From contig WRAC01000005.1 of NCBI GenBank assembly GCA_009780415.1, positions 14,835 to 78,834 of the forward strand: a stretch of DNA of 64,000 nt, written 5' to 3'. Below are positions 15,045 through 48,557 of this stretch, one piece after another; the stretch's first letter is position 1; each line of letters starts with the position of its first letter. Below the pieces are notes generated by a model. It did not search any database and was not told the DNA's origin. It was given only the letters and a program-made list of their open reading frames with translations. This DNA is from Defluviitaleaceae bacterium (lineage in GTDB: Bacteria; Bacillota; Clostridia; Lachnospirales; WRAX01). The translations under genes were made by a program, and so were the position numbers.

Positions 15045-15266
15045 ACATTGACGGGGACAGAGGCCGGAAGCAAAGAAAAACAGAGAATAACGGCAGAGCT
15101 GAAAGCCGCTGTGACAAACAGGCCGAAACCACCTCCGAGTGGCTTTAATAGAGTCCGTTGATTACGTTATAATCTATAGAGAGGCATATTATTTGGTATG
15201 CAATTTGGGTGGAACCGCGGGAGATGTCCCGTCCCTTGTTTATGACAACGGACGCGGGCATTTTTA
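15045..15266 (+). ncRNA. T-box riboswitch leader, threonine specifier (ACC)
   Basis: AGAGA box, GCTGAAAG, specifier loop GAA-ACC-A (ACC 15128-15130), T-box AATTTGGGTGGAACCGCG (15202-15219), antiterminator and terminator hairpin with T-run (15224-15265); thrS lies downstream. Confidence 0.92.
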
Positions 15267-15289
15267 ATTTATATTAAAGGAGCGTACAT

Positions 15290-16507
15290 ATGGAAATACG
15301 CAAAATAAAGAACCATGAAGAGTTTGACTTAACTAAGATCGGGCACATCTGCTTCAGCGTCCCGGGGCAAAAGGACGTTGACAAAGAAGCCTTCGTTTCC
15401 CGCATGAAATCAGAGGACGCAAGCTGGAACCCCGACGCGGAGAAAACAGGGGACTATGCCGCGTTTACCGGCGGCTATATGGTCGGCGCCGTGTTAACTC
15501 CCGAATACACCGTTTATTTCGACGGCGGGCAGTATAATATGCGCGGCATCGGCGGCGTCTGCGCTTTGCCGGCTTATCGCAAGCAAGGGGTCGTCCGCGG
15601 GATTATGGAGCGGGTTTTACGGGATATTTACAACGATGGCGCTGTTTTTTCCGTACTGTATCCGTTCAGCTTCGATTTCTACCGCAAGATGGGTTACGAA
15701 TGCGCGCTGGCTATGACCACATATGATGTCAAAATCACGGCTTGCCCGGAGGGGGATTTCGGAGGTTCCTTCATTTTATGCGAAACAAGGGCTCACTTTA
15801 ACGATGCCGCCGCGGTTTACAGCACGTACGCCGAACGTTCCGCCCTTGCCGCCGTCCGCAATGACTCCCGCTGGGACGCCATTTTTACAAAGAAACCCTC
15901 CGTAGACGGGATTACCACCTATATATGGAAGGATAACGACGGCAAACCCCGCGCTTATATTACCTATGAGATCGGTAAAAACGAAGGCGAAATGTTTCTT
16001 GACGTAAAGGAGCTGTGCTTCACGGACAGCACGGCGCTCCGGGCCTTGATCAGCTTCGTGCGCGGCTCGTTCCTGGGATTTTACGGCTTCATGCGCATAA
16101 CCGTCCCCGCCGGCGCGGATATCCGCTTTTTGTTCACCGAGCATAACTCCATTAAGGGAACGACCAATTTCAGGGGCATGACGCGTATCGTGAACGTGAA
16201 AAAGACCTTTGAAGCCGTGAAAGCTAAGGGTTTTGGCGTGGCCTATATCGAGGTGACCGACAGGCAAATCCCCGAAAACAACGGCTGCTGGCGCGTTGAA
16301 TCCGGCGAGGGCGGCATTAAGGCGGAAAAAGCTGACGGTGTGAATCCGTGCATGTCGGCGCCGGTCTGCGCGCTGAGCGCGATGCTTACCGGGGTTATAG
16401 ACTTTGAGCATGTTGATTTTTTCCCCGCCGTTACCGTTAACGGGAACAGGGATATGCTCTCCGGCCTGTTCTGCAGCAGAACCAATTTTCTCTATGAGTA
16501 TTTTTAA
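15290..16507 (+). CDS. Eis-like GNAT acetyltransferase with C-terminal SCP2-like domain
   Basis: GIGGVCALPAYRKQG acetyl-CoA motif, LYPFSFDFYRKMGYE, MTRIVNV, and DRQIPENNG SCP2-like end; 405 aa. Confidence 0.85.
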   Translation: MEIRKIKNHEEFDLTKIGHICFSVPGQKDVDKEAFVSRMKSEDASWNPDAEKTGDYAAFTGGYMVGAVLTPEYTVYFDGGQYNMRGIGGVCALPAYRKQGVVRGIMERVLRDIYNDGAVFSVLYPFSFDFYRKMGYECALAMTTYDVKITACPEGDFGGSFILCETRAHFNDAAAVYSTYAERSALAAVRNDSRWDAIFTKKPSVDGITTYIWKDNDGKPRAYITYEIGKNEGEMFLDVKELCFTDSTALRALISFVRGSFLGFYGFMRITVPAGADIRFLFTEHNSIKGTTNFRGMTRIVNVKKTFEAVKAKGFGVAYIEVTDRQIPENNGCWRVESGEGGIKAEKADGVNPCMSAPVCALSAMLTGVIDFEHVDFFPAVTVNGNRDMLSGLFCSRTNFLYEYF

Positions 16508-16524
16508 ATGAAAGGATAAAAAAC

Positions 16525-18423
16525 ATGATTACTCTGACATTGAAAGACGGCAAGGAGCTTATGTTAGAAGCCGGGTTGTCCGTTTACGACATAGCCGGAA
16601 GGCTCAGCGAAGGCTTACAGCGCAACGCTCTGGCGGCTCTGGTTGACGGCGGGCTTTCGGATCTGCGCGCGGTTCTTGACAAGGACGCATCCTTGGAAAT
16701 CCTGACCTTTAACGACGAAGGCGGTAAATGGACGCTTAGGCATACCGCGGCGCATTTGCTTGCCCAAGCCGTGCTGAACCTTTACCCCGGGACGCTGCTT
16801 GCGATTGGCCCCGCCATCGACGACGGGTTTTACTACGATTTTGAATTCGCCAAACCCCTTACGGCTGATGAATTGCCCGCCATTGAGGACGAAATGAAAC
16901 GCCTTGCTAAAACCGGAATGAAGCCTAAACGTTACGCCCTCTCCCGCGCCGATGCCTTAGAGTCCGTAAAAAACGAGCCCTATAAGACCGAGCTGATAAC
17001 CGACCTGCCCGAGGGCGAGGAGATTTCGTTCTACGAACAGGGCGGCTTCACCGACTTATGCGCCGGGCCGCATGTGATGGACACGAAGGCCGTGAAAGCC
17101 GTAAAGCTTACGTCCGTCGCCGGGGCATATTGGCGCGGCAGCGAAAAAAATAAGATGCTTACGCGTATTTACGGCACGGCTTATACAAAGCAAGCGGATT
17201 TGGACGCTTATCTGGAGCGGCTGGAGGAAGCCAAGAAGCGCGACCACCGTAAGCTTGGGAGGGAGCTGTCGCTCTTTGCCATGCTTGACGAGGGTCAGGG
17301 ATTTCCGTTTTGGCTGCCCAACGGGCTTATCCTTAAAAATATCCTGACCGATTATTGGCGCGGAGTGCATAAACGCGAGAATTATATGGAAATCTCCACA
17401 CCCCTAATGCTGGACGCGAATCTTTGGGATGTCAGCGGACATAGGAAAAGCTTTGGCGAAAAAAATATGTACGCAACCAAGATTGACGATTACGAATATT
17501 TTATGAAACCCATGAACTGCCCGGGCGGTATACTCATTTATAAGCAGGACTTACATTCCTACCGCGAGTTTCCACTGCGTATAGGCGAATTGGGTATCGT
17601 CCACCGCCACGAGAAATCGGGGACGCTCCACGGGCTGATACGTGTGCGGAGCTTTACGCAGGACGACGCGCATATATACATTACGCCCGATCAGATCAAA
17701 GACGAGGTTAAGCATGTAATGGGCTTAATGGACGAGATATACGGGACTTTCGGGTTTACCTATAAATTGGAGCTGTCAACGAGGCCTGAAAATTCCGTGG
17801 GTACGGACGAGATGTGGGAGAACGCCACGAACGCGCTGCGCGAAACATTGGAAGAAACGGGCAAGGTTTATAAGGTAAACGAGGGCGATGGGGCGTTTTA
17901 CGGGCCTAAGATAGATTATCACCTGACGGACGCTATCGGGCGCACCTTTCAATGCGGTACTATACAGCTTGATTTCAATCTTCCCGAACGGTTCGGAATG
18001 GAATATGTCGCGCCCGACGGCAGCAAACAGCGCCCGGCAATGATCCACCGCACGATTTACGGGGCGCTTGAACGCTTTTTGGGCTTGCTGATTGAGCATT
18101 ACGCCGGACAGTTCCCGCTGTGGCTTTCGCCCGTGCAGGCTATCGTTCTGCCTATCTCCGACAAATTCCTTTCCTACGCCCGGTCCGTCGAGAACCGCTT
18201 AAACGCCGAGGGCTTCCGCGTCGAGACAGACCGGCGCCAGGAAAAAATCGGTTATAAAATCCGCGAGGCGCGTAACCGCCGCATCCCATATATCCTGGTA
18301 GTGGGCGAGGCTGAAGAGGCCGCGAACACCGTATCCCTGAGAAGCCGTGAGGGCGACGAAGGGGCGCAGGCCGCGGACGCTGTGATTTCGCGTATGCGTG
18401 ACGAGGTGAAGGAGAAGAGGTAA
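16525..18423 (+). CDS. thrS: Threonine--tRNA ligase
   Basis: TGS domain, RHTAAHLLAQA, DLCAGPH, KRDHRKLG, KPMNCP and QCGTIQLDF motifs. Confidence 0.98.
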   Translation: MITLTLKDGKELMLEAGLSVYDIAGRLSEGLQRNALAALVDGGLSDLRAVLDKDASLEILTFNDEGGKWTLRHTAAHLLAQAVLNLYPGTLLAIGPAIDDGFYYDFEFAKPLTADELPAIEDEMKRLAKTGMKPKRYALSRADALESVKNEPYKTELITDLPEGEEISFYEQGGFTDLCAGPHVMDTKAVKAVKLTSVAGAYWRGSEKNKMLTRIYGTAYTKQADLDAYLERLEEAKKRDHRKLGRELSLFAMLDEGQGFPFWLPNGLILKNILTDYWRGVHKRENYMEISTPLMLDANLWDVSGHRKSFGEKNMYATKIDDYEYFMKPMNCPGGILIYKQDLHSYREFPLRIGELGIVHRHEKSGTLHGLIRVRSFTQDDAHIYITPDQIKDEVKHVMGLMDEIYGTFGFTYKLELSTRPENSVGTDEMWENATNALRETLEETGKVYKVNEGDGAFYGPKIDYHLTDAIGRTFQCGTIQLDFNLPERFGMEYVAPDGSKQRPAMIHRTIYGALERFLGLLIEHYAGQFPLWLSPVQAIVLPISDKFLSYARSVENRLNAEGFRVETDRRQEKIGYKIREARNRRIPYILVVGEAEEAANTVSLRSREGDEGAQAADAVISRMRDEVKEKR

Positions 18424-20129: not shown

Positions 20130-20771
20130 TTATTTATTTAAAATCGCCTGCTTAGCGGCCTCGGCGGCGGAAGCGGCGTCGGCGGTGTAGATATCGGCGC
20201 CGGCGCTGTTGCGGAAGCTGTCCGTCACGGGCGCCCCGCCTATCATTATCGTCACGCTGTCACGGATGCCGGCGGCCGTGAACGCTTCGACGGTGTTTTT
20301 CATTTCGCCCATTGTCGTGGTCAGAAGCGCGGATAAAGCGACAACGTCCGGTTTTTCGGTTTCATAGGCTTCCACGAATTTTTCGGGGGAAACGTCTACG
20401 CCAAGGTCGACGACTTCGATGCCCTTGCCTTCAAACATCATGCGGACAAGATTCTTGCCGATATCGTGCAGATCGCCCTTTACCGTGCCGATAATCGCCT
20501 TGCCGATGGGTTTGGCCCCGGCTTCGGCAAGATGCGGCTTCAACAGTGTGGTTCCGGCATTCATCGCCCGCGCCGCTATTAATACTTCAGGGACGTACAC
20601 CTCGTTTTTTTGGAACTTATCCGCGACGATATCCATACCCGCCAGCAAGCCTTTTTCCAAAATGTCCTTGGAACTGACGTTTTCGGACAGGGCCTGCTCG
20701 ATCAGTTCCGTAACGGCTTTGGCTTTGCCGCTTTGCAGCGCTTCCGAAATTTGGTTAATAAGTTCGCTCAT
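20130..20771 (-). CDS. Corrinoid (B12-binding) methyl-carrier protein, MtaC/MttC family
   Basis: Cap domain (VYVPEVLIAARAM), DLHDIGKNLV (DxHxxG), SALLTTTM and MIGGAPV motifs. Confidence 0.93.
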   Translation of the reverse strand: MSELINQISEALQSGKAKAVTELIEQALSENVSSKDILEKGLLAGMDIVADKFQKNEVYVPEVLIAARAMNAGTTLLKPHLAEAGAKPIGKAIIGTVKGDLHDIGKNLVRMMFEGKGIEVVDLGVDVSPEKFVEAYETEKPDVVALSALLTTTMGEMKNTVEAFTAAGIRDSVTIMIGGAPVTDSFRNSAGADIYTADAASAAEAAKQAILNK

Positions 20772-20836
20772 GTAATATTGCCTCCCAAGGTTAATTATTT
20801 GTATGATATCAAAAAATTCACAGTTTGTCTAACATT

Positions 20837-21913
20837 TTAGTATTTTCCCAGCTCCAAACCCTTTTCCAGAAAATACCGGAACGAGTCGTAACGCACCGTC
20901 GGCGGTATGGAATGGTCGCTGCTAAGAATGTATCCGAAACCGTCTTTTACAACGGGTATTTTGGATTTTAACTCCGCGCCGATGATGTCCCGGTCGTTGG
21001 AATAAAGGCAGCGCACATCAATGCCGCCAAGCAAGGCAATTTTATCTCCGTAATTTTTATGTATGCGGAGCAAGTCCATCCCCGCCTTTATTTCAATGGT
21101 TTGATAACCGTTTATGCCCGCTTCGATCATCTTAGGAAGAAGCGGCTCAACATAACCGCAGGAATGCATAATCACGGGTAACTTCAAAGAACGCGCAAAA
21201 TCAATCGTTTTCTTGTGCGACGGGAAAATCAGCTCACCGTACATTGCGGGAGACATAAACGGCCTTTCCTTAAAACCCATGTCCTCGCAAAACCAAAGGC
21301 CGTCCGGCTTGCCTTCTCTGGCAAACAATATTTCCATCAGCGCTACCGTCAGGTTCGCGTATGTTTCCGCCATATCCAAAATCCACCCGGGGTCAAGCGC
21401 CATCCCGGCCAACATATGCTCATGGCCCGCGATGGGGTGCATACACTCAAACACATTAACGCCGCTCCATGTGAAGAAACGGTTTGCTTTACGGGCGGCT
21501 TCCTTTGACTGCCTGTACCGCTCAAAATTAATCCTGCGCTCGTCCGGTTTAACCAGGAAAGGCTTGTATTCCTCCCAGTCGCGGCGCGTTTTGACCGTGA
21601 AATCAACGTGTTCCGGCGTGGTTTCTCGTTTTTTATGCCTTCTGAGGTATGCCCCGTTTCCGTCAAGGGTCGTTACGGTTTCATCCGTCTCGGCAACTAT
21701 TTTGACGGTAAAATCAAGGTCGGCGGTGAGGTTAAAGGGCCAGCCCTCCTGCATGTCAAACCCGAAATGATCCTCAAAGCTTTCGTCCGCGCCGACTTTG
21801 CCGTCTTTGCGGTATTCGGGGTAAGTCCCGTCCCAAAAATGCTCGTAAACGCCGAGCCTGTCCACGGGTTTCTTGTTCAGGATATTTGAAATACGCTCTA
21901 TACCCGTCATCAT
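20837..21913 (-). CDS. Uroporphyrinogen decarboxylase-superfamily protein (probable corrinoid methyltransferase)
   Basis: EDMGFK..FMSP, HSCG, LGGID and SSDHSIPP motifs; ATGA overlap with the upstream SGNH gene. Confidence 0.8.
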   Translation of the reverse strand: MMTGIERISNILNKKPVDRLGVYEHFWDGTYPEYRKDGKVGADESFEDHFGFDMQEGWPFNLTADLDFTVKIVAETDETVTTLDGNGAYLRRHKKRETTPEHVDFTVKTRRDWEEYKPFLVKPDERRINFERYRQSKEAARKANRFFTWSGVNVFECMHPIAGHEHMLAGMALDPGWILDMAETYANLTVALMEILFAREGKPDGLWFCEDMGFKERPFMSPAMYGELIFPSHKKTIDFARSLKLPVIMHSCGYVEPLLPKMIEAGINGYQTIEIKAGMDLLRIHKNYGDKIALLGGIDVRCLYSNDRDIIGAELKSKIPVVKDGFGYILSSDHSIPPTVRYDSFRYFLEKGLELGKY

Positions 21914-22554
21914 ATTACGCCAACGTGGCGCAGCCATTCCCGCGCAATCAACGCATGCCCGTAATCAGTGGGGTGTACGCCGTCCTCCGCTATATCGCGG
22001 GCCGGGACTCCCTGAACGGCGAAACGGGCCAGCAAGCCGTCCAACGGTATGTAGATATCGGCAAATTCCCCCGCCAGCTCGCGCACGGCCTGTATCTTGG
22101 GCTCAAGGTCTTCGCGCCAGGCGTTCTGGCCCGGCAAGACGTGCAGGAGAAAGGGATCCATCATGATGATTTTTGTTTCGGGGAGATCCCGTTTTATAAA
22201 TGACAGCAGCTCACGGTAACCGCCGGTAAAAGTGTCTTCCGCTGTTGGGTCGCCGCTGTCATATCTGCGCCAGACATCGTTTATCCCGATAAGAATGGAC
22301 AGCGCATCAGGCTTTAGCTCCAAAATATCCGCGGCATACCGCGCAAGCACGTCGCGCACGCGGTTCCCCGAAACGCCCCGGTTTAAAAATACGGTTCCCG
22401 AATCCGGGCACAGGGAGTTGTAAATATCAGCGGCACGTTTTACATAGCCGTTTCCCAATGAGCCGCAATCACAGCGGTCACGCCCGCAGTCCGTAACGGA
22501 ATCCCCTTGAAACAATACTCTCTGTTTATTAAAAATATACTTCATACGCGTCAA
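21910..22554 (-). CDS. SGNH/GDSL esterase
   Basis: FQGDSVTD, NRGVSG, IGIND and DGVHP blocks. Confidence 0.9.
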   Translation of the reverse strand: MTRMKYIFNKQRVLFQGDSVTDCGRDRCDCGSLGNGYVKRAADIYNSLCPDSGTVFLNRGVSGNRVRDVLARYAADILELKPDALSILIGINDVWRRYDSGDPTAEDTFTGGYRELLSFIKRDLPETKIIMMDPFLLHVLPGQNAWREDLEPKIQAVRELAGEFADIYIPLDGLLARFAVQGVPARDIAEDGVHPTDYGHALIAREWLRHVGVI

Positions 22555-31848: not shown

Positions 31849-33558
31849 TTATCCGGCACCTTCCTCCGCAAAGAACTTCCGGGTATTTTCCGCAATGGCT
31901 GATATGTTGTCGTAGGACGCGTTTACGCTGGCGCTGATCTTCACTATCATCTCGTTGACGGAACTGATGGCGCCTGTTGCCTTAACGGAGGTATCCTTTG
32001 TCTGTTTTGCTGATTCGGCGGATCTGGTAGCCAGCGTTCTTATCTCCTCCGCCACAACGCTGAACGCGCGCCCCGCCGTACCGGCCCTGGCGGCTTCGAT
32101 TGAGGCGTTCAGCGATATAATATTAATCTGCATCGCTATTTTTTCAATTTCCATGACCATCTTATTATACGCGGTGATGGCATCGGTGATATCCTTTATG
32201 TTTGATACGATGCCCTCGGTCAGCTCCTTTGTATTTGCGGTGTCGGTAAGTATATATTCAAAGTTGCTCAAATTCGCCTTGGCTTCGGCATGTTCGCGCT
32301 GAACGTCCTTATGCGCCTTGTCAACGCAGTTGCCGGGAATATCAAGCCCCTTCGCTATCCTCAGCACCATTTCATGGCAAGTGTCGCAGCCGCAAGCGCC
32401 GCAGTCGAACGTCCTGCCGGCTTCATCATGCTTGCCAAGCGCTTCGTAAATCTTTTTGATGGCTTCCTGTGAAACCTGTATACGGCGGGTCGGGAGGGGT
32501 TTGTAATGTCTTATGAAATCCTCCAGGCGCAGTGTTCTGTCAAATTCCTCAAACAGCTCGTCCAGATACTGTCTCTTGTCCTCGCGGATTGAGTTTTTGC
32601 GCGCGGAATCCATTGATGTGTTCATATCAAACACGTTTTTGTTATGGATACAGCCGGTGCCAAGGTTGCATCCCTCCGCGCAGTTGAGTACGTCAAACAC
32701 TGCGGGAAGCGCGTTGACCGGCTGGATGGCATATTCGTCCAGGGCTTTATAGACGACGTCCGGCCCTTCCGATTTATCTATGCGGAGGGCTTTGCCTATG
32801 TAATACTCCACATTTTCCTTCAACCCTCCGGGCATCGGGTAAAGCGAACCCAATCCTGAGTCATAATGGTCGAACCCGGATGACTGGACGGGGAGGCTGA
32901 TGCGGTGACTGTCCATATACTCTTGGAGCTTTTTGAAAGTGACGTTGTATTCCGCAAGGCCGGTGGCCTCGAATTCGTGGGTTTTCGCGATGCATGGGGA
33001 AAGCGCCGCGATTCTGGTATTTACATTGGCGTACTTTTTCATATATACCGCGGAGCAGAGCATGGGCGAATGTACGGGGGACAGCTTCTTGACCAGTTCA
33101 TTTTTATGCAGCAGCACGTAATTCACAATAGCGGGGCATGGCTGTGAGATTATGGGGTTTGCGCCGTGTTTCTGGATATATCTGATATGCGCCCATGTGC
33201 AGATGTCCGCGCCAAGGGAAACATCGTGGATTTCCCTGACTCCAAGCTGACGCAGCCATGTCAGCATACGCTCCCAGTCATTGAAGTTCGTTTTAAAAGC
33301 CGGCGCGGCAAAGACGCTGATGGGAACGCCGCTTTTCAGGTCACTGAAGAATCGCTCCGTATCGTCCTCGTACTGCCTCGCGCCGTGATGGCACGCGCTG
33401 ATACAAGCTCCGCAGCTTATACATTTGCTGCTGTCCACCTCGACTTTGACATCTCCGCCGATTAGCCTGGAGATATTTGCTTCGTCAATAGGGCATACTC
33501 TAACGCAGCGGTTGCATCCGACGCAATTCTCGCTCAGGTTGATGATCAGGTTCCTCAT
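31849..33558 (-). CDS. [FeFe]-hydrogenase-like sensory domain fused to an MCP signalling domain (soluble chemoreceptor)
   Basis: 2x[4Fe-4S] (CVGCNRCVRVCP, CISCGACISAC); H-cluster-like motifs SQPCP, SPCIAKTHE and LNCAEGCNLG; FeS motif DCGACGCDTC; MCP hairpin ISLNASIEAARAG..GRAFSVVAEEIR. Confidence 0.88.
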   Translation of the reverse strand: MRNLIINLSENCVGCNRCVRVCPIDEANISRLIGGDVKVEVDSSKCISCGACISACHHGARQYEDDTERFFSDLKSGVPISVFAAPAFKTNFNDWERMLTWLRQLGVREIHDVSLGADICTWAHIRYIQKHGANPIISQPCPAIVNYVLLHKNELVKKLSPVHSPMLCSAVYMKKYANVNTRIAALSPCIAKTHEFEATGLAEYNVTFKKLQEYMDSHRISLPVQSSGFDHYDSGLGSLYPMPGGLKENVEYYIGKALRIDKSEGPDVVYKALDEYAIQPVNALPAVFDVLNCAEGCNLGTGCIHNKNVFDMNTSMDSARKNSIREDKRQYLDELFEEFDRTLRLEDFIRHYKPLPTRRIQVSQEAIKKIYEALGKHDEAGRTFDCGACGCDTCHEMVLRIAKGLDIPGNCVDKAHKDVQREHAEAKANLSNFEYILTDTANTKELTEGIVSNIKDITDAITAYNKMVMEIEKIAMQINIISLNASIEAARAGTAGRAFSVVAEEIRTLATRSAESAKQTKDTSVKATGAISSVNEMIVKISASVNASYDNISAIAENTRKFFAEEGAG

Positions 33559-34934: not shown

Positions 34935-35933
34935 TTACGCCTTTTCGTAAGCCTCGATAATAGCCGGGATGACCGTGTACAAATCCCCCACTATGCCATA
35001 ATCCGCCACTTCAAATATAGGCGCGTTTTCATCTTTGTTTATGGCGATAATGCAGTCGGCGTTCTGCATACCCGCCAGATGCTGGATCGCGCCGGAAATG
35101 CCGCATGCGATGTAGATTTTGGGTTTTACCGTTGTGCCGGTCTGGCCTACCTGGTGGTTTTTGGATATCCAGCCCGCGTCAACCGCGGCGCGGCTGGAGC
35201 CTACCAAGCCGCCGAAGGTTTTCGCCAGCTTGCCGATCAGCTCAAATCCATGAGGGCCTCCAAGCCCGCCGCCGCCGGAGACTATGACATCGGCGTCGGT
35301 TAGGGAAACGGCTTCGTGCACGGTTTTTACTATTTCCAATATTTTCTGGCGCGCGTCGTTTTCGGTGAGGGATATGTCAAGCTTTACCAGCTCGCCTTTT
35401 CTGCCGGGCGTTCTTTCGGCTTTTTCCATTACGCCTGGGCGAACGGTCGCCATTTGCGGGCGGTTGTCCGGCGTAATGATTGTCGCCATAAGGTTTCCGC
35501 CAAAAGCGGGGCGGGTTTGCAGCAGTTTTTTATCCTCCGGGTCTATCTCAAGCTTTGTGCAATCCGCCGTAAGCCCCGCGCCCAGCCTTAACCCCACGCA
35601 AGGCGCAAGGTCGCGCCCGATGTGCGTCGCGCCCATCAGGATAATCTCGGGCTTATATTTCGCCGCCGCGTCCGCCATAACCTTTGTGTACGCGTCGTTG
35701 GTATAATTCTTTAATTCCGGGGCGTCGGCGGCGTATACGGTGTCCGCGCCCAGTTCAAATAATTCCTGTATCAAATGCTCCACATTTTCGCCGCAAAGCA
35801 CGGTTCCAAGGCTCGTCCCGGCCGCTTCGGCCAGCTTACGGCCTTCGCCCAAAAGCTCCATGACCACGGGCATAAGCTTTCCGCCGCGGCTCTCCGCAAA
35901 AACCCACACACCGCGATATTCATTAATCGCCAT
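34935..35933 (-). CDS. etfA: Electron transfer flavoprotein alpha subunit
   Basis: [21 protein letters not shown] and CGISGAIQH motifs. Confidence 0.96.
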
Positions 35934-35937
35934 AACC

Positions 35938-36735
35938 TTAGCCCTCCTTCTTCAGCATATTCTTATGATTAAGCGCGTCAATCAGCGCGGCGGCGGCGTC
36001 CCCGGCGCTGCCCCCAAGCATCTGCCCCTTACCCTTGGGCGGCGGCGTAAAACTCTTCCACACCTTGGTCGGGCTTGCTTTCAAGCCGCATTTCTCGGGC
36101 TCTATGTTTAAATCCTTTTCGTCCCATACCGTAATTTCTCTGGCATACGCGTCCTCAATGCCCATAAGTGTCATGTAACGCGGGCTGTTAAGCTCCTTCA
36201 CAGCCGTAAGCACGCAGGGCAGGGGAATCTCAATAACCTCGTAGCCGTCCTCCATCTGCCGCTCCACGATGACGCTTTTTTCCTTAACCTCACGGATCGC
36301 CTGCACATATGTCACGACGGGAAGCCCCAGCCTTCCGGCTATCTGCGGGCCGACCTGCGCGGTGTCGCCGTCTATGGCCTGGCGCCCGGCAAAGATGATA
36401 TCAAAGCCGCCGATTTTTTTAATACCCTCGGCAACCGTATTCGCCGTGACATATGTGTCCGCCCCGCCGAAAACGCGGCTGGACAGCAGGACGGCGTCAT
36501 CGGCGCCCATGGCAAGGCACTCGCGCAGCATATACTTCGCCTGACCCGGCCCCATGGAAATTACATGCACTTCCCCGCCGTAAGTGTCTTTCAGGGAGAG
36601 GGCGGCTTCCAGCGCGTTCGCGTCGTCTGGGTTCAATATCGACGGAACTCCCTCGCGTATCAATGTCCCCTTTACGGGATCGATCTTAACCTCGTTAGTA
36701 TCCGGCACCTGCTTGGCGCACACGATTATCTTCAT
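35938..36735 (-). CDS. etfB: Electron transfer flavoprotein beta subunit (bifurcating type)
   Basis: [15 protein letters not shown] and [14 protein letters not shown] motifs. Confidence 0.96.
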
Positions 36736-36748
36736 ATATAAAACTCCT

Positions 36749-37897
36749 TTATCTCTTCAGCAGTTGCGCTGCCATAACCATTTTCTGCACTTCGCTTGTG
36801 CCCTCGTAAATCGGCAGTATGCGCGCGTCGCGGTACAGGCGTTCAACGCGGTAGTCCTTCATAAAGCCGTAGCCGCCGTGGATCTGGATGGCGTCGTAGG
36901 CGATCTGGTTTACCGCCTCGGCGGAATAGAGCTTGCAGGTGGAGGCGGCAAGGGATATCTGCCCGCCCGTAACGCCCGCGTCAACCAGCAGGGCGGCCTG
37001 ATAAGTAAGCTCTTTCGCGGCCTGAAGCTTCGCGTACATATCGGCGAGCTTGAAGCTAACGCCTTGGAACTCGCCTATGCGCTTGCCGAACTGCTTGCGT
37101 TCGTTGGCGTATTTAACGGATTCATCCAAGCAGGCTTGTCCTATGCCGATGGCTTGGGCCGCGATGCCTATGCGCCCGATATCCAGCGTTCCCATGGCGT
37201 TGGCAAATCCCCTGCCCAAATCACCCAGCAGGCCGCTTTTATGAACCCGTACGTTTTCCATGATAATATCGCTTGTCGGGCAGCCGCGGATGCCCAGCTT
37301 GTTTTCCGGTTTCCCCAAAGAAACGCCGGGGGCGCGCATATCCATTACAAAGGTGGAGATGCCGCGCAAACCCTTGTCCGGGTCGGTCTTTGCGTAAATA
37401 ATCGCGATATCGGCCGTAGGCGCGCCTGTGATAAATGTCTTGCGCCCGCTTAGGATATAGTAATCCCCGTCAAGGACGGCCCTTGTGGTCATACCGCCCG
37501 CGTCACTGCCCGCGCCGGGTTCGGTCAGGCCGAATGCGCCGATGTATTCGCCGGATGAGATAGGCGGCATGTATTTCTCCTTTTGCTCCCTGCTGCCCGA
37601 AATCATGATTGGCATACTGACAAGGGAATTCTGTGTGGAGATGTACAGCCCGAAAGCCGCGCTGGCCCGGCACATTTCTTCCGTGGCGATAACATAGGCC
37701 AAACAGTCCGAACCCTGCCCGCCCAGTTCCTTCGGCGTTTTAATGCCAAAAAACCCAATCTTACCCATCTTGTCCAACAACGCCCGGTCAAAATAACCTC
37801 TTTCCTCCGCCTCGTCAAGCACCTCGGAGGTCAGCTCGCGGTCAGCGAAGCCCTTGGCAAGCTTACGTATAAGCTCATGCTTTTCTTGAAAAATCAC
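36749..37897 (-). CDS. bcd: Acyl-CoA (butyryl-CoA) dehydrogenase
   Basis: FGLTEPGAGSDA, GRIGIAAQA, QIHGGYGF and IYEGTSEVQ motifs; upstream of etfBA; GTG start. Confidence 0.88.
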   Translation of the reverse strand: MIFQEKHELIRKLAKGFADRELTSEVLDEAEERGYFDRALLDKMGKIGFFGIKTPKELGGQGSDCLAYVIATEEMCRASAAFGLYISTQNSLVSMPIMISGSREQKEKYMPPISSGEYIGAFGLTEPGAGSDAGGMTTRAVLDGDYYILSGRKTFITGAPTADIAIIYAKTDPDKGLRGISTFVMDMRAPGVSLGKPENKLGIRGCPTSDIIMENVRVHKSGLLGDLGRGFANAMGTLDIGRIGIAAQAIGIGQACLDESVKYANERKQFGKRIGEFQGVSFKLADMYAKLQAAKELTYQAALLVDAGVTGGQISLAASTCKLYSAEAVNQIAYDAIQIHGGYGFMKDYRVERLYRDARILPIYEGTSEVQKMVMAAQLLKR

Positions 37898-42907: not shown

Positions 42908-44353
42908 TCAGAGGAATTTTTCGACTAAATTAAGCAAAGATGGACAGACTCCCAGCAGCTTGCAAATGCCAAGGGCGTCGTTCGGCACGGAATCCGCCGG
43001 CTGCGCCTTGATCAGCCTGTAATCCATCAGCCCCGGTATCATTTCCGGCGATAAACGTTTTTTATCGGATTCCAGCGCGGCCAGGAGTTCTTTTTTCAAT
43101 CCCGCCGCCATGTAGCAATTATATTCTTCTTTAGCCACATTGTCATAATGGGTGGAAAGGATGGATATGGATGACAGCCCGTTTAAACACGCGGCCAGCC
43201 CCGCCGCTATGGCGCGGCCCTCGCGGGGGTTCGTGCCCCTTGCCGGTTCGTCCAGGATGATGAGGGAGAAGCCGTTCAAAGCGCGTTCAAGCAAGGCGTT
43301 AACATTGGACATTTCCGCGCCGAAGCTGGACAGGCCGGAGTAGACGCTCTGCTCATCGTCAAAGATAAAGTCGATATTGTCAAATAAAGGCAGCCCGGCT
43401 TCGGCGGCAAACACCAAAAAACCGCATTGGAACAGGTAGCAGTTAAGCGCAACGGTTTTGAGCGCGACGCTCTTGCCCCCCATGTTCGCGCCGGTTAAAA
43501 CAGCCGTTCCGGGCGCGAGGCTCAAGCTTACGGGTGTAACGCGCCCGCCGCGTTCTTTCAGGGCGGCGTCCGCTTCCGGGCTGTAAACGTCTTTCAGCAT
43601 TATTGTATTTTCGGTAATCGACGCTTTTACGCAGCCGTATTCACGTGCCAGAGAAGCCTTTGCCAAGGTCAGATCCAGCCTTGCCAGGGCATCGATATTC
43701 ACGTCGAAATCCATTTTGTGCGTTGCAAGCCTAAACGTAAGCGCGGTACGCACCGCCAGCTCCTCTTCCTCCTCCTCAGCCACAATTTTCAGGCGTTCGC
43801 GCTCCAGCTCTTTTAGGGTTTCCGCGTTATTCACGGCGTTTAACCCGGCATCGATTATCAGTTTTTTCTCACGTATTATACGAAGCTTTTCCGAATATTT
43901 TTCATTGACATAAAAACTACGCAGGCGCGTCCTTTCCGGGTCCAGTACCAGCAGCGCGTCCTCCATGGGAGCAATCCCTATGCCTGTAAGCCCGGCGGAT
44001 CCGTTAAAGCGCGCGTACGCCTCCGCCAACTCGCTAAGGGCAAGCAGAAAGGATTTAACCTCAAACAGCTCCACCTCACCCAGCGCTTTGCCTTCTTCAC
44101 CGGTCAGCTTTTTTACCGAACCCCTGATATCGCGGAATTTCGGTAATATTCTGGTGAAGGCTGAATTATCCGCGCCGGAAAAAGCCGCGCGCTCCACATT
44201 TTCCAATTCTATCGCAAGTGCGCCCGCCTGAGCCTTTAAAAACGGCGCAATATGCCTTGCCGCGTCCCTTCCGTATGGCGTGACGGGGGTAAGCTTATTC
44301 AGCGCGTACGCCGCTCCAACCGTGCGCAGTTGTTTATCCGTAAACCGTTTCAT
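42908..44353 (-). CDS. MutS-V ATPase, KamC-like (B12 aminomutase reactivase subunit)
   Basis: TGANMGGKS, GLSSFGAEM, ILDEPARGTNP and STHYD motifs; no mismatch-binding or Smr domain; overlaps the KamB-like gene. Confidence 0.75.
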   Translation of the reverse strand: MKRFTDKQLRTVGAAYALNKLTPVTPYGRDAARHIAPFLKAQAGALAIELENVERAAFSGADNSAFTRILPKFRDIRGSVKKLTGEEGKALGEVELFEVKSFLLALSELAEAYARFNGSAGLTGIGIAPMEDALLVLDPERTRLRSFYVNEKYSEKLRIIREKKLIIDAGLNAVNNAETLKELERERLKIVAEEEEEELAVRTALTFRLATHKMDFDVNIDALARLDLTLAKASLAREYGCVKASITENTIMLKDVYSPEADAALKERGGRVTPVSLSLAPGTAVLTGANMGGKSVALKTVALNCYLFQCGFLVFAAEAGLPLFDNIDFIFDDEQSVYSGLSSFGAEMSNVNALLERALNGFSLIILDEPARGTNPREGRAIAAGLAACLNGLSSISILSTHYDNVAKEEYNCYMAAGLKKELLAALESDKKRLSPEMIPGLMDYRLIKAQPADSVPNDALGICKLLGVCPSLLNLVEKFL

Positions 44354-45239
44354 GTTCCTCCACATCAAAGACAGGGACAGATACCCTGTCACGAACCGCC
44401 GCGAGAAACTCAGCCCGGTCAAAGGCATAGCCGAGACCGGGGGCGGTTGGGTTGAGGGCCGCCGCGATTAAATCAGCCGGCTTGTTAACATAAATCTTTC
44501 CGCCCCTGTGCAGAAATCTGTCCAGAACGGCGGATTTTACGAAGATTTTTGACATATCGGCTGCAATTACCGCCGTTATTTTAATATCGGCGCAGTCTGT
44601 GATTTCCCCAAGGATTTCGTCCGTCAGCGCGCCGCTTATCCGACGTATAACCGCGTCTTCTCTGCATTCCGCCTCCAGCGGCAGATTCATTAAACGGCAG
44701 ATATGCGCGCATTCGGCGGCTACCGCGTTTATATCGCGGTTAAGCGCGGCCCCGGCGCATAAAATGACCCCTCCGGAAGCTTGGGCGAATGTGCGCCTGT
44801 CGCCTGAGCCGTCAACCAAAATTTGGCCCGCTCCGATTTCCGCGCGCATGTAGCGGCATAGTTCACCCAGCTGGCTGTTGACGGACGGCCCGGCAAGGCT
44901 TACGCGCCCGTCGGACAGGGCTTCCGCTACGATAACCTCGCCCAAAGGCGTGGAGATGCCCGTCGTATGGACGATGCGCCTGGTGAAATCGCAATCCCTC
45001 AGTACCCCGGCGGCTGTTGCGGCGTACATCCCTTTGTATATGCGGATTTCGGGAAAAACGCCGCCCTGCCCGACGGATGTAACGGCTAACGGGGGCAGGG
45101 CTTGGGCATTGCTTTTGGTATATCGTTTATATGCGTGGATCAAATGCTTTAAAACAGTGGTTTTACCGGCCGATTTCGACAATCCGACCAGCGAAACGAC
45201 CGGATACGGACGGCAAAGGCTGAACAAATCATTTTGCAT
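44334..45239 (-). CDS. KamB-like P-loop protein (B12 aminomutase reactivase subunit)
   Basis: VSLVGLSKSAGKTTVL, TPLGEV, LAGPS, ILVDG and NPTAP motifs; paired with the KamC-like gene. Confidence 0.7.
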   Translation of the reverse strand: MQNDLFSLCRPYPVVSLVGLSKSAGKTTVLKHLIHAYKRYTKSNAQALPPLAVTSVGQGGVFPEIRIYKGMYAATAAGVLRDCDFTRRIVHTTGISTPLGEVIVAEALSDGRVSLAGPSVNSQLGELCRYMRAEIGAGQILVDGSGDRRTFAQASGGVILCAGAALNRDINAVAAECAHICRLMNLPLEAECREDAVIRRISGALTDEILGEITDCADIKITAVIAADMSKIFVKSAVLDRFLHRGGKIYVNKPADLIAAALNPTAPGLGYAFDRAEFLAAVRDRVSVPVFDVEEHETVYG

Positions 45240-46074
45240 AGCTGAAAAAGCCTTCTCCGGTCTTTTTACCCAGCCTGCCCGCCCTTACCATTTTGCGGAG
45301 CAGCGTGCTGGCGCGGTATTTGGTGTCCCCGGTTTCCGTAAGCAAGGTGTCCATAATAAACAGCACAACGTCGTTGCCGATGAGGTCGGACAGCGCCAGC
45401 GGCCCGATGGGATGGTTCGCGCCCAGCGTCATCGCCTTGTCGATGTCCGCGGCGGAGGCCACGCCCTGCTCCAGCACGCAAATGGCCTCGTTAATCATCG
45501 GCACAAGAATCTTGTTCACGACAAAACCCGGCGCTTCCTTTACCTCGACAGGCTCCTTGCCGATTTCCCTCGAAAGTTCAACAACCCTTTCAAATGTCTC
45601 GTCGGATGTCAGGAACCCGCGGATAACCTCGACAAGCTTCATAACAGCCGCCGGGTTGAAGAAATGCATACCGATAACCTTGTCCGGGCGGCTTACGGCC
45701 TGAGCAAGCTCGGTTATCGAAATGGACGATGTATTCGACGCGAGAATGGTGTCAGGCTTACAAATCTTATCAAGTTTGCCGAACAGTTCTTTTTTAATAG
45801 CCGGGTTTTCAATTACAGCCTCAACAGCTAAATCACAATCCGCCGCAGACGATAAATCGGCTGTACCGCTTATACGCCCCATAATTTCGCTTTTTTTACC
45901 CGCTTCAATCTTGCCTTTTTCAACCAGCTTTGAAAGGCCCTTGTCCAGCCCCGCGACGCCCTTTGCCGCTATCTCATCCGAAATATCATATAAAACCGCC
46001 GTATGCCCGGACTGGGCGAAAACCTGCGCGATGCCCGCGCCCATGGTTCCCGCGCCCGCTATGAATACCCTCAT
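45229..46074 (-). CDS. hbd: 3-hydroxybutyryl-CoA dehydrogenase
   Basis: GAGTMGAGIAQ, ASNTSSISIT, GMHFFNPA and GANHPIGPL motifs. Confidence 0.95.
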   Translation of the reverse strand: MRVFIAGAGTMGAGIAQVFAQSGHTAVLYDISDEIAAKGVAGLDKGLSKLVEKGKIEAGKKSEIMGRISGTADLSSAADCDLAVEAVIENPAIKKELFGKLDKICKPDTILASNTSSISITELAQAVSRPDKVIGMHFFNPAAVMKLVEVIRGFLTSDETFERVVELSREIGKEPVEVKEAPGFVVNKILVPMINEAICVLEQGVASAADIDKAMTLGANHPIGPLALSDLIGNDVVLFIMDTLLTETGDTKYRASTLLRKMVRAGRLGKKTGEGFFSYAK

Positions 46075-46112
46075 GTCTACACCCCTCTCTTTTACTTTTT
46101 GCTTATTACCTT

Positions 46113-47294
46113 TTAACTTTCCCTCTCCACCGCCACGGCTATACCCATACCGCCGCCGATGCACAGTGCGGCCAGCCCCTTCCGTACGCCGCGCTTTTCC
46201 ATTTCGTATAAAAGCGTTACGAGGATCCGCGCGCCGCTGGCTCCGATGGGGTGGCCCAGAGCGATTGCGCCGCCGTTTACGTTTACTATGTCCATGTTTA
46301 ATTTAAGCTCTTTCGCGACGGAAAGCGACTGCGCCGCGAATGCTTCGTTGGTCTCAATCAGCTCAACCTCGTCCATGCTCCAGTTTGCCGCCGCGAGGGC
46401 GTTCTTGACGGCTTGGACGGGGCCGATTCCCATAATTGCGGGGTCCACGCCGGCTTGTCCCATGGCTTTTATCACCGCCAGCGGTTTAAGACCGCGCTTT
46501 TCGACTGCGGCTTCGGAAGCGAGCATCAGAGCCGCCGCGCCGTCGTTGATGCCGGAGGAATTGCCCGCCGTAACCGTGCCGCCCTCTTTAAAGGCGGGGC
46601 GCAGCCGGGCGATCTTTTCGATGTTGGTATCGGGGCGCGGGAATTCGTCGGTTTTGAATTGGACGGTTTCCTTATTTACCGTAATCTCCACCGGTACGAT
46701 CTCGTCGTTAAAACGCCCGGATGTAACGGCGTCGGCTGTTTTGCGCTGGCTTTCCACCGCGTATATGTCCTGCTCAAGGCGGGAAATGCCGTATTTTTCC
46801 GCAAGGTTTTCCGCCGTAATGCCCATATGGATGTGATTCATGGCGCAGAGCAAGCCGTCGTTGATCATTGTGTCAACAACCGCGCCGTTGAAAAGCTTGT
46901 AGCCGAAACGCGCGTCCAACAGGGCGTAAGGCGCTTTGCTCATGCTTTCCATGCCGCCGGCGGCCACGATGTCATTGTCACCGGCTATAATGCTCTGCCG
47001 CCCCAGGGTAAGCGACTTTAAGCCCGACCCGCACAGCATGTTGACCACCGTTGCGCATACGTTTTCGCCAATCCCGGCTTGAAGGGCGGCCTGTCTTGCC
47101 ACGTTCTGCCCGAACCCGGCGGTCAGCACCGCGCCCATTATAACTTCGTCCACGTCGGCGGGGGTAAGCCCCGCGCGTTTTACGGCTTCTGCTATTGCCA
47201 CGGCTCCCAGCTTCGGCGCCGGGACGTTCATCAGCGCTCCGCCCATTGACCCGATTGCGGTTCTTGCCGCTCCCACAATATACACCTTGCTCAT
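46113..47294 (-). CDS. thlA: Acetyl-CoA acetyltransferase (thiolase)
   Basis: NMLCGSG, NEAFAAQ, GHPIGASG and LCIGGGMG motifs. Confidence 0.95.
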   Translation of the reverse strand: MSKVYIVGAARTAIGSMGGALMNVPAPKLGAVAIAEAVKRAGLTPADVDEVIMGAVLTAGFGQNVARQAALQAGIGENVCATVVNMLCGSGLKSLTLGRQSIIAGDNDIVAAGGMESMSKAPYALLDARFGYKLFNGAVVDTMINDGLLCAMNHIHMGITAENLAEKYGISRLEQDIYAVESQRKTADAVTSGRFNDEIVPVEITVNKETVQFKTDEFPRPDTNIEKIARLRPAFKEGGTVTAGNSSGINDGAAALMLASEAAVEKRGLKPLAVIKAMGQAGVDPAIMGIGPVQAVKNALAAANWSMDEVELIETNEAFAAQSLSVAKELKLNMDIVNVNGGAIALGHPIGASGARILVTLLYEMEKRGVRKGLAALCIGGGMGIAVAVERES

Positions 47295-47304
47295 TTAAAG
47301 GCTC

Positions 47305-47727
47305 CTATTCAACTTTTACTCTTGGCGGGCTGATGATTCCTTCCCCTTCAAGGACTGTAACGCCGTCTTGATTTACGCAGGCGGCTTTGATTTTAATTTT
47401 CGACTTTTCAAGCTTTTCCGCAATCTCGACAACGGCGGTAATAGTATCCCCAAATTTAACCGGAGCCATAAAATTAAGCTGCTGGGAAATCCAGATAGTG
47501 CCGTGGCCCGGCATAATATTGCCGAGCACGCCCGACACAAGTCCCGCCGATATCAGCCCGTGGGCTATCCTTGTTTTGAAGAATGTGTTCTTCGCGTATT
47601 CCTCACTGAGGTGAGCCGGGTTTATGTCGCCCGAAATCCCCGCGAAAAGGTATACGTCCGTCTCCGTGACGGTCTTGCTGAAAGATGCCTTTTGGCCTAC
47701 AGACAGTTCGTCGTACAGATAATTCAT
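47305..47727 (-). CDS. MaoC/PhaJ family (R)-specific enoyl-CoA hydratase
   Basis: FAGISGDINPAH..RIAHG hydratase-2 motif. Confidence 0.9.
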   Translation of the reverse strand: MNYLYDELSVGQKASFSKTVTETDVYLFAGISGDINPAHLSEEYAKNTFFKTRIAHGLISAGLVSGVLGNIMPGHGTIWISQQLNFMAPVKFGDTITAVVEIAEKLEKSKIKIKAACVNQDGVTVLEGEGIISPPRVKVE

Positions 47728-47769
47728 GATAACCCTCCTTATACTCAGCCAACTTCTAAAAAATGTTTA

Positions 47770-48447
47770 TTATTTACAAGCCTCGATAAAAGGCCTGAAT
47801 AATTCAATCATCAACGCGTGCTCCGGGGATTCCAGCATAGCCTCGGGATGCCATTGGTAACAGGCGCAGAACCAATCCCCGCTGTATTCATAAGCTTCTG
47901 TGAAACCTTCGGCGGAACGCGCCGTAACGATAAAACCGGGGGCCAGCTTATCCGCAAGCTGGTGGTGGAAGCTGTTAACCCGGACGGAGCTCTGTCCAAG
48001 CCATTTGCGCAGTTTAGTCCCGTCCGTTATGTCAATGCTGTGCGTTGCGGTGCTTCTGGCGTCTTTTTGGTCGTGGCCGTCTATATGCTGGATGAGATTT
48101 CCGCCCAAGGCTACGTTGATGACCTGCTCACCCCGGCAGATGCCCAGCAGCGGCTTCTTCGCCTCGAAAGCGAGCCTTGCCAGCGTAATCTCGAACATAT
48201 CTCGCTCCTCGGATATACCGGACACTTTCTCATGGTTATCCTGACTGAAATATTTAGCCTGTACATCGCCGCCGCCGCTGAAGAGCAGGCCGTTGCAGGC
48301 GGCAAGGTATTCATTCTCAAAACCCGGCTTATTTGGCAGCACAACGGGAATGCCCCCTGCCGCCGCCACGGCGTTTACATATGTTTTTTGCACCGACGTA
48401 AGGGTTTTATCGGCTGCGGATGATGTTATGCCAATTATTGGCAGCAT
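47770..48447 (-). CDS. Peptidase C26 / gamma-glutamyl-GABA hydrolase (PuuD) family
   Basis: SGGGDV, LGICRGEQ, VNSFHHQ and QWHPE motifs. Confidence 0.9.
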   Translation of the reverse strand: MLPIIGITSSAADKTLTSVQKTYVNAVAAAGGIPVVLPNKPGFENEYLAACNGLLFSGGGDVQAKYFSQDNHEKVSGISEERDMFEITLARLAFEAKKPLLGICRGEQVINVALGGNLIQHIDGHDQKDARSTATHSIDITDGTKLRKWLGQSSVRVNSFHHQLADKLAPGFIVTARSAEGFTEAYEYSGDWFCACYQWHPEAMLESPEHALMIELFRPFIEACK

Positions 48448-48507: not shown

Positions 48508-48557
48508 ATGACAAGATTGTCATACTAATTATACAACGAATATGAAGCTTATGGCAA
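48508..48557 (-). promoter_or_regulatory. Promoter TTGCCA-N18-TATAAT with operator-like palindrome ATGACAA-N2-TTGTCAT over the predicted +1
   Basis: -35 at 48557-48552, -10 at 48533-48528, perfect inverted repeat at 48508-48523. Confidence 0.65.

Follow-up and report, generated by a model that had tools for sequence, protein, structure and literature searches.

A kamB–kamC pair with a loop-less KamB, displaced from the lysine 5,6-aminomutase genes of a Defluviitaleaceae genome

The operon in the window

We describe a kamB–kamC gene pair in a stretch of 64,000 nucleotides (nt) on contig WRAC01000005.1 of a Defluviitaleaceae bacterium. KamB and KamC form a reactivase of the B12 enzyme lysine 5,6-aminomutase (5,6-LAM, or KamDE), reportedly characterised by Darbyshire and Wolthers in 2024 (doi 10.1021/acs.biochem.3c00653, cited in PMC12633315). 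The whole stretch is called the window here, and bare coordinates are positions in it; C5, C8, C19 and similar labels denote contigs of the source genome, G000 (2.53 Mb, 85 contigs, listed as 100% complete).

Six genes lie co-oriented on the minus strand in the order PuuD-like, MaoC, thiolase, Hbd, KamB and KamC. The first encodes a PuuD-like class I glutamine amidotransferase (Peptidase_C26; 47770-48447; PF07722, E 6.6e-55), which reaches 89.8 bits on NF008471, under the cut-off of 266. It is followed by a MaoC-like hot-dog enoyl-CoA hydratase (47305-47727; PF01575), a thiolase (46113-47294; TIGR01930, 462 bits against a cut-off of 240), and the 3-hydroxybutyryl-CoA dehydrogenase Hbd (45229-46074; NF004474, 426.9 bits against 408). 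The operon ends with a KamB variant of 301 amino acids (aa; 44334-45239) and KamC, a MutS_V ATPase of 481 aa (42908-44353; NF052383, 449.6 bits against 300). The first four genes are separated by gaps of 42, 10, and 38 nt; the hbd stop and the kamB start overlap by 11 nt, and kamB and kamC by 20 nt. The kamC start codon is an ATG at 44353, with GGAGG ahead of it. Order, orientation, and overlaps are as given in a preliminary description made from the letters of the window. That description also reported no kamA, kamDE, or B12 mutase, and this is correct for the window: a Pfam scan of 36 window proteins finds none, and the sole B12-binding protein there is a corrinoid protein of methyltransferase type (20130-20771). 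All three kam genes are found on C19.

Identity of KamC and KamB

The assignment of the last two genes to KamB and KamC holds. KamC keeps its motifs intact in the alignment (Walker A GANMGGKS, GLSSFG, DEP, and STH), and in a tree of 44 rows with a MutS2 outgroup (quick IQ-TREE search) it falls within the KamC family, apart from MutS2, with a Shimodaira–Hasegawa-like approximate likelihood ratio support of 100. It resembles MutS2, an endonuclease or ribosome-collision ATPase, in its core: both match PF00488, and the best Foldseek matches of the KamC model are MutS2 proteins (template modelling (TM) score 0.74-0.76). It differs from MutS2 in length (481 aa against about 790) and in its score on the MutS2 family TIGR01069 (163 bits, cut-off 400), and MutS2 is encoded separately in the genome, on C17. 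The two MutS2 genes, of 791 and 650 aa, lie 7 kb apart (L021:6436-8811 and 15531-17483), and both exceed the TIGR01069 cut-off.

For KamB, NF052386 is the only NCBIfam match (E 1.6e-61, 208.1 bits, 2 bits short of the cut-off of 210); its Walker A motif, GLSKSAGKTT, is kept, and its gene lies directly upstream of kamC. The KamB structure model has a predicted local distance difference test score (pLDDT) of 91.9. In VIA-align comparisons it resembles Get3/TRC40 (Z 10.8, root-mean-square deviation (rmsd) 3.7, 177 aligned), FlhF (Z 10.6), BioD (Z 10.5), and the GTPase domain of IcmF (Z 10.0, rmsd 3.2, 162 aligned). A P-loop fold of SIMIBI type is predicted for KamB, as a class only, with the top Z values tied. 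Foldseek with the same model returned one match at E < 0.001 with a TM score of 0.16, and nothing clear. Neither sequence nor fold search found a solved structure of KamB or KamC.

A loop deletion marks one KamB lineage

The preliminary description had suggested that this KamB lacks a conserved loop, and the suggestion was right. At 45045-45080 (minus strand), TSVGQGGVFPEI stands in place of TSIGRDGExxDxVTxTxKPxI: the alignments give an in-frame deletion of 9 residues. The deleted loop follows the second strand, where P-loop proteins of this type carry switch I, and probably corresponds to that position. For comparison we used the best 80 of at least 592 GTDB kamC loci from a scan with the KamC alignment, a sample biased to Bacillota. 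The loop is kept in 72 of the 72 assessable KamBs, meaning those with the N-terminus on the contig (71 recognised by pattern, 1 by inspection; another 3 are truncated, and no KamB was obtained from 5 loci). It is also present in 15 of 17 KamB-positive relatives. Among 20 database homologues it is kept in 12 and absent in 7, including the proteins of G008 and L127; the last is a fragment. A middle segment of about 45 aa is missing from the window KamB as well, and from most family members.

Nine KamBs are loop-less: the window protein, those of genomes G006 and G008 and of metagenome locus L127, and the proteins P0001, P0002, P0003, P0005, and P0007. These nine sequences form one clade (FastTree, support 99). 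The loss of the loop is genuine and characterises a single lineage. KamB scores in the clade run from 240 down to 83 bits, and the KamCs of four clade members are steady at 365-466 bits; in G006 and L127, KamB has additionally lost its Walker A motif and C-terminus. Since seven of the nine loop-less KamBs scored fall below the NF052386 cut-off, annotation pipelines would miss most of them. Conserved columns changed in all 7 clade rows number 10 of 49 in KamB, about half of them stemming from the single loop deletion, compared with 1 of 73 for KamC and 9 of 174 for MreB. Even so, kamB remains under purifying selection: between the window and L127 there are no stops, and the nonsynonymous proportion (pN) is 0.30 against a synonymous proportion (pS) of 0.69, with the synonymous distance (dS) saturated.

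The preliminary description had proposed a KamB/KamC phylogeny with gene neighborhoods; in ours, KamC sits inside the KamC family, the loop-less KamBs form one clade, and the operon is shared within the lineage. Trees were built from every third GTDB locus and the relatives, those of KamB and KamD by FastTree. G000, G006, and G008 group together in the KamB, KamC, and KamD trees (support 99-100). In the MreB tree G000, G008, and L127 stand together (100/100) on a long lineage stem; an MreB of G006 was not found. Co-evolution of KamE with the loop loss, which would have favored KamDE as the client, was considered and rejected: 8 of 130 conserved KamE columns are changed in all three clade genomes, two of them beside the B12 His, but the rate is no different in the MreB control (9 of 174, Fisher p 0.80), and the stem of the lineage is long.

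The exact window order, puuD-maoC-thl-hbd-kamB-kamC behind ddl-murI-mreB, is repeated in the metagenome locus L127. A metagenome scan of 83 candidates gave one locus. Parts of the operon occur in relatives, as hbd-kamB-kamC in G006 and puuD-kamB-kamC in G008. The arrangement is inherited within one lineage.

Lysine fermentation genes elsewhere in the genome

Contig C19 carries kal-kce-kdd-kamA-kamD-kamE, each above its curated cut-off and without kamBC. Scores are 621 bits against 525 for kamA (TIGR03820), 861 against 600 for kamD (NF052384), and 380 against 280 for kamE (NF052385). The kamA gene ends at C19:32959 and the kamD frame starts at 32907; the two genes abut, and therefore leave no room for kamBC between them. 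KamE keeps the DAHTVG motif and the NMKG lysine found in solved 5,6-LAM beta chains. The whole genome has one kamB and one kamC, both in the window. Further NF052383 matches all fall under the cut-off, and two of them are the MutS2-type genes of C17.

Thiolase, Hbd, MaoC (a single tblastn match), and Bcd are all single-copy, and all lie in the window; homologues of AtoD and AtoA are encoded on C42. The genes bcd-etfB-etfA, for butyryl-CoA dehydrogenase and electron transfer flavoprotein (34935-37897, minus strand; Pfam and NCBIfam matches), are 5 kb downstream of the operon, with a two-component pair in between. According to PMC3149608, Bcd, the AtoA/AtoD CoA transferase, and thiolase are steps 6-8 of lysine fermentation. 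The genes of the route that turns lysine into butyrate and acetyl-CoA are distributed among at least 3 loci: kal-kce-kdd-kamA-kamD-kamE on C19; thl, hbd, maoC, kamBC, and bcd-etf on C5; and atoD-atoA on C42. Thiolase and Bcd catalyze later steps of lysine fermentation, so kamBC has landed among the downstream genes of its own pathway.

Two interpretations had been put forward in the preliminary description: that the pair was repurposed for a different B12 enzyme, or that it is a relocated part of a lysine pathway. The second agrees with the genome, where kamA-kamD-kamE lies on C19 and the sole kamBC in the window. The first is not supported, as the kamA/kamDE cluster on C19 is intact and its only kamBC copy is this pair. 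This combination was one of two observations that the description itself regarded as refuting repurposing; the other, a failure to group with KamB/KamC, was not seen for KamC.

Co-occurrence with KamD and position in other genomes

We surveyed 61 genomes: G000, 19 others of its family, and 41 of its order. KamB is matched in 18, identical to the 18 with a full-length KamD, and is absent from the 2 genomes with OraE only and from the 41 with neither. Within the family, 14 of the 20 genomes have one kamB each by profile search. KamC is detected in 14 of the 17 relatives with KamB.

The preliminary description took kamA-kamBC-kamDE to be the normal setting of the pair, and this is not a defining feature. 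By hand count of the best 80 GTDB loci, kamC stands directly before kamD in 25, kamBC stands ahead of kal/kce in 43, and no lysine gene occurs in the fetched flank in 12. For these 12 stand-alone loci (two of which duplicate G055 and G007), kamD lies elsewhere in 10 genomes; 9 of these kamD genes score over the cut-off, and 1 is interrupted by the end of a contig. The 10 include all 5 genomes whose locus is flanked by at least 7 kb on each side. A kamB between kamA and kamD occurs in just 2 of the 18 KamB genomes (G012 and G036); in most members of the family, kamB is oriented away from a thl/atoDA/kal block or is on another contig. Displacement of kamBC from kamD is common. Full-text searches of the openly accessible literature found no paper on a split kamBC or a loop-less KamB.

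Function of the loop-less KamBC

Taken together, we are confident that the pair, the sole kamB–kamC of the genome, is a variant of the known KamBC reactivase that is specific to its lineage and has been relocated, and that it most likely serves the KamDE of C19 in trans. It resembles the known system (NF052386, NF052383) in its adjacent, overlapping kamB–kamC and its above-cut-off KamC, in the constant company of KamB and KamDE across the 61 genomes, and in having a client with both subunits over the cut-off. It differs in lying in a puuD-maoC-thl-hbd operon outside the kam cluster, and in a KamB without the RDGE..D loop and the middle segment.

KamDE undergoes substrate-dependent suicide inactivation, according to PMC3958899, and a reactivase is needed for this reason. 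Once KamDE has been inactivated in this way, KamC, an ABC ATPase with a MutS2 core, would hydrolyze ATP to help exchange the damaged cobalamin for fresh adenosylcobalamin (AdoCbl), as family membership and the published name suggest. KamB in this lineage, having lost the loop at the switch I position, might serve KamC chiefly as a non-catalytic adaptor, a proposal to which we give slightly less than even odds. It draws on the further erosion of KamB in G006 and L127, where KamC stays intact. The simplest reading would be that the KamB nucleotide site is dispensable here and that KamC supplies the ATPase.

Several observations weigh against a conventional reactivase for KamDE. The window KamB is under a curated equivalog cut-off, and the loop that it lacks is invariant in the GTDB sample, such that an altered function is possible. 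Despite kamB and kamD, kamC was not found in G003 (94% complete), G011 (86%), or G016 (68%). Two of the 12 stand-alone GTDB loci gave no match for kamD, in genomes whose completeness is not given. The genomes surveyed are kin and not independent, and the 18 of 18 therefore overstates the co-occurrence of KamB and KamD: these counts describe a pattern and are no statistical test. Finally, an acyl-CoA mutase is encoded in all three loop-less-KamB genomes, which make up 3 of the 4 carriers among the 61. The three belong to one clade, so this link is a single coincidence, possibly a causal one.

The acyl-CoA mutase provides one alternative, in which the loop-less KamBC was redirected or extended to the mutase on C8, tying that enzyme to the thiolase–Hbd operon. 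A search of the genome for other possible clients, suggested in the preliminary description, found KamDE, OraE, and this acyl-CoA mutase, and no glutamate mutase E. The co-orientation and overlap of kamBC with hbd would fit such a link, as would the predicted KamB fold, which is in the class of the MeaB and IcmF GTPase domains. However, the association of mutase and loop loss amounts to one event, as the three genomes are one clade in the KamB, KamC, and KamD trees (and in the MreB tree, G006 aside). PF01642 is matched in G000, G006, G008, and G032; G032 carries the mutase but no KamB, and in 15 of the 18 KamB genomes the mutase is not matched. On C8, the genes after the mutase encode its small subunit, MeaB, an epimerase, and one subunit of a decarboxylase, and meaB, epimerase, and decarboxylase accompany it in G008 too. 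In the alignment the C8 enzyme shares Tyr and Arg with human methylmalonyl-CoA mutase at positions where 2-hydroxyisobutyryl-CoA mutase has Ile and Gln, residues that we presume to govern specificity; it therefore does not look like a butyryl-CoA mutase. The mutase is of the methylmalonyl-CoA type, and in G000 and G008 it has its own MeaB. Redirection alone would also strand KamDE without a reactivase. We consider redirection or extension to the C8 mutase very unlikely, and we think equally little of the broader form, in which loop loss and the move into the thiolase–Hbd operon accompanied a wider client range and KamBC reactivates the acyl-CoA mutase as well. Were it true, a MutS-type reactivase would have crossed from a pyridoxal phosphate (PLP) aminomutase to an acyl-CoA mutase.

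A second alternative is that the pair is a decaying relic: KamB would be functionless, and KamDE would run without reactivation or with KamC alone. The deletion in all clade members, the additional losses in G006 and L127, and the excess of changed conserved columns in KamB, about half of it due to one deletion, are what decay would produce. Against this, kamB has no stops or frameshifts and a pN well under pS (given saturated dS), the kamB–kamC order is kept in G006, G008, and L127, the KamB model is confident, and the KamC motifs are intact. Decay is improbable, on a par with the mutase proposal.

Least credible of all is service to ornithine 4,5-aminomutase (OAM, OraSE) or another B12 enzyme: OraE, a homologue of KamDE, is encoded in two parts at the ends of C44 and C50, but oraE is followed on C50 by its own GlmL-related, OraF-like gene (NF040744, 672 bits against 600), both OraE-only genomes lack KamB, glutamate mutase E and EutB have no match in the genome, and a diol dehydratase search, run without a positive control, was blank. 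KamBC is also said to be specific for 5,6-LAM over OAM (Darbyshire and Wolthers 2024). Of the B12 mutases found, KamDE alone lacks an adjoining helper gene.

Relation to other helper systems

Two further helper types invite comparison. MeaB/MMAA, the GTPase chaperone of methylmalonyl-CoA mutase, likewise assists an AdoCbl mutase and shares with KamB a predicted SIMIBI-type P-loop fold (Z 9.5-10.0). In contrast, KamB has 15-16% identity to it, no TIGR00750 match, and a MutS-like ATPase as its partner, and the true MeaB lies beside the C8 mutase. Helpers of the OraF/GlmL type act as reactivases of ornithine aminomutase and glutamate mutase. They too are helpers of a B12 aminomutase, but they belong to an unrelated family.

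As a system, the pair is of little importance: the reactivase is a known one, the lysine fermentation pathway around it is rearranged, and the arrangement is ordinary apart from the loop-less KamB. It also cautions that genes missing from a 64-kb window may still be present in the genome. In this lineage KamB forms a natural deletion series while KamC stays intact: the loop is lost first and then, in G006 and L127, Walker A and the C-terminus. These variants can be used to ask which KamBC subunit hydrolyzes ATP.

Other features of the window and of related loci

Upstream of the operon lies a weakly supported sigma-70-like promoter candidate, TTGCCA-18-TATAAT (48528-48557, minus strand; 11/12 matches). 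The promoter scan is at chance level, with 3 sites found against 4.6 expected by shuffling, as is the terminator scan. Rfam gave 0 matches at the gathering threshold in the window and five genome loci. The PuuD-like amidotransferase gene accompanies kamB in G008, where it is directly before kamB, and in L127, where its position is as in the window.

No crotonase (PF00378) is matched anywhere in the genome, and the MaoC-like protein, in the same operon as Hbd, is the sole hydratase candidate. MaoC-like hydratases are usually R-specific and Hbd is usually S-specific. A short-chain dehydrogenase gene occurs near maoC, after kamE, in relatives G011 and G007.

Elsewhere in the window, the corrinoid protein (B12-binding and B12-binding_2) lies beside a URO-D-like protein; the two (20130-21937) form a methyltransferase-type module without a mutase. 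At 31849-33558, an [FeFe]-hydrogenase-like domain with 4Fe-4S motifs is fused to a methyl-accepting chemotaxis protein (MCP) signaling domain, likely as a sensory chemoreceptor. On C19, two small open reading frames, of 93 aa (+) and 73 aa (-), occur between kce and kdd (L020:10106-10618 and 15257-16213), and a lipoate ligase gene follows directly after kamE.

The loci with kamB and kamD in which kamC was not found are L087:14226-18131 (G011), L093 (G016), and L098 (G003); assembly loss or replacement of KamC is possible. In G011 and G016 three genes follow kamB, the last encoding an ATPase of the acyl-CoA dehydratase activase type (in G011, TIGR00241, 201.8 bits against 125.4). Several relatives have a homologous gene of about 260 aa directly upstream of kamB (L091:5580-6359, L092, L094, L095, L096, and L098), presumably PhzF-like; its G000 homologue is on C4. 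The KamC of G018 (L086:3927-6014) has 695 aa, about 230 aa above the usual length, and is possibly fused to the next gene. Asgard archaea (Lokiarchaeum and Promethearchaeum; L143 and L205) also have kamC-kamD-kamE, and in L143 the order is kamA-kamB-kamC-kamD-kamE.

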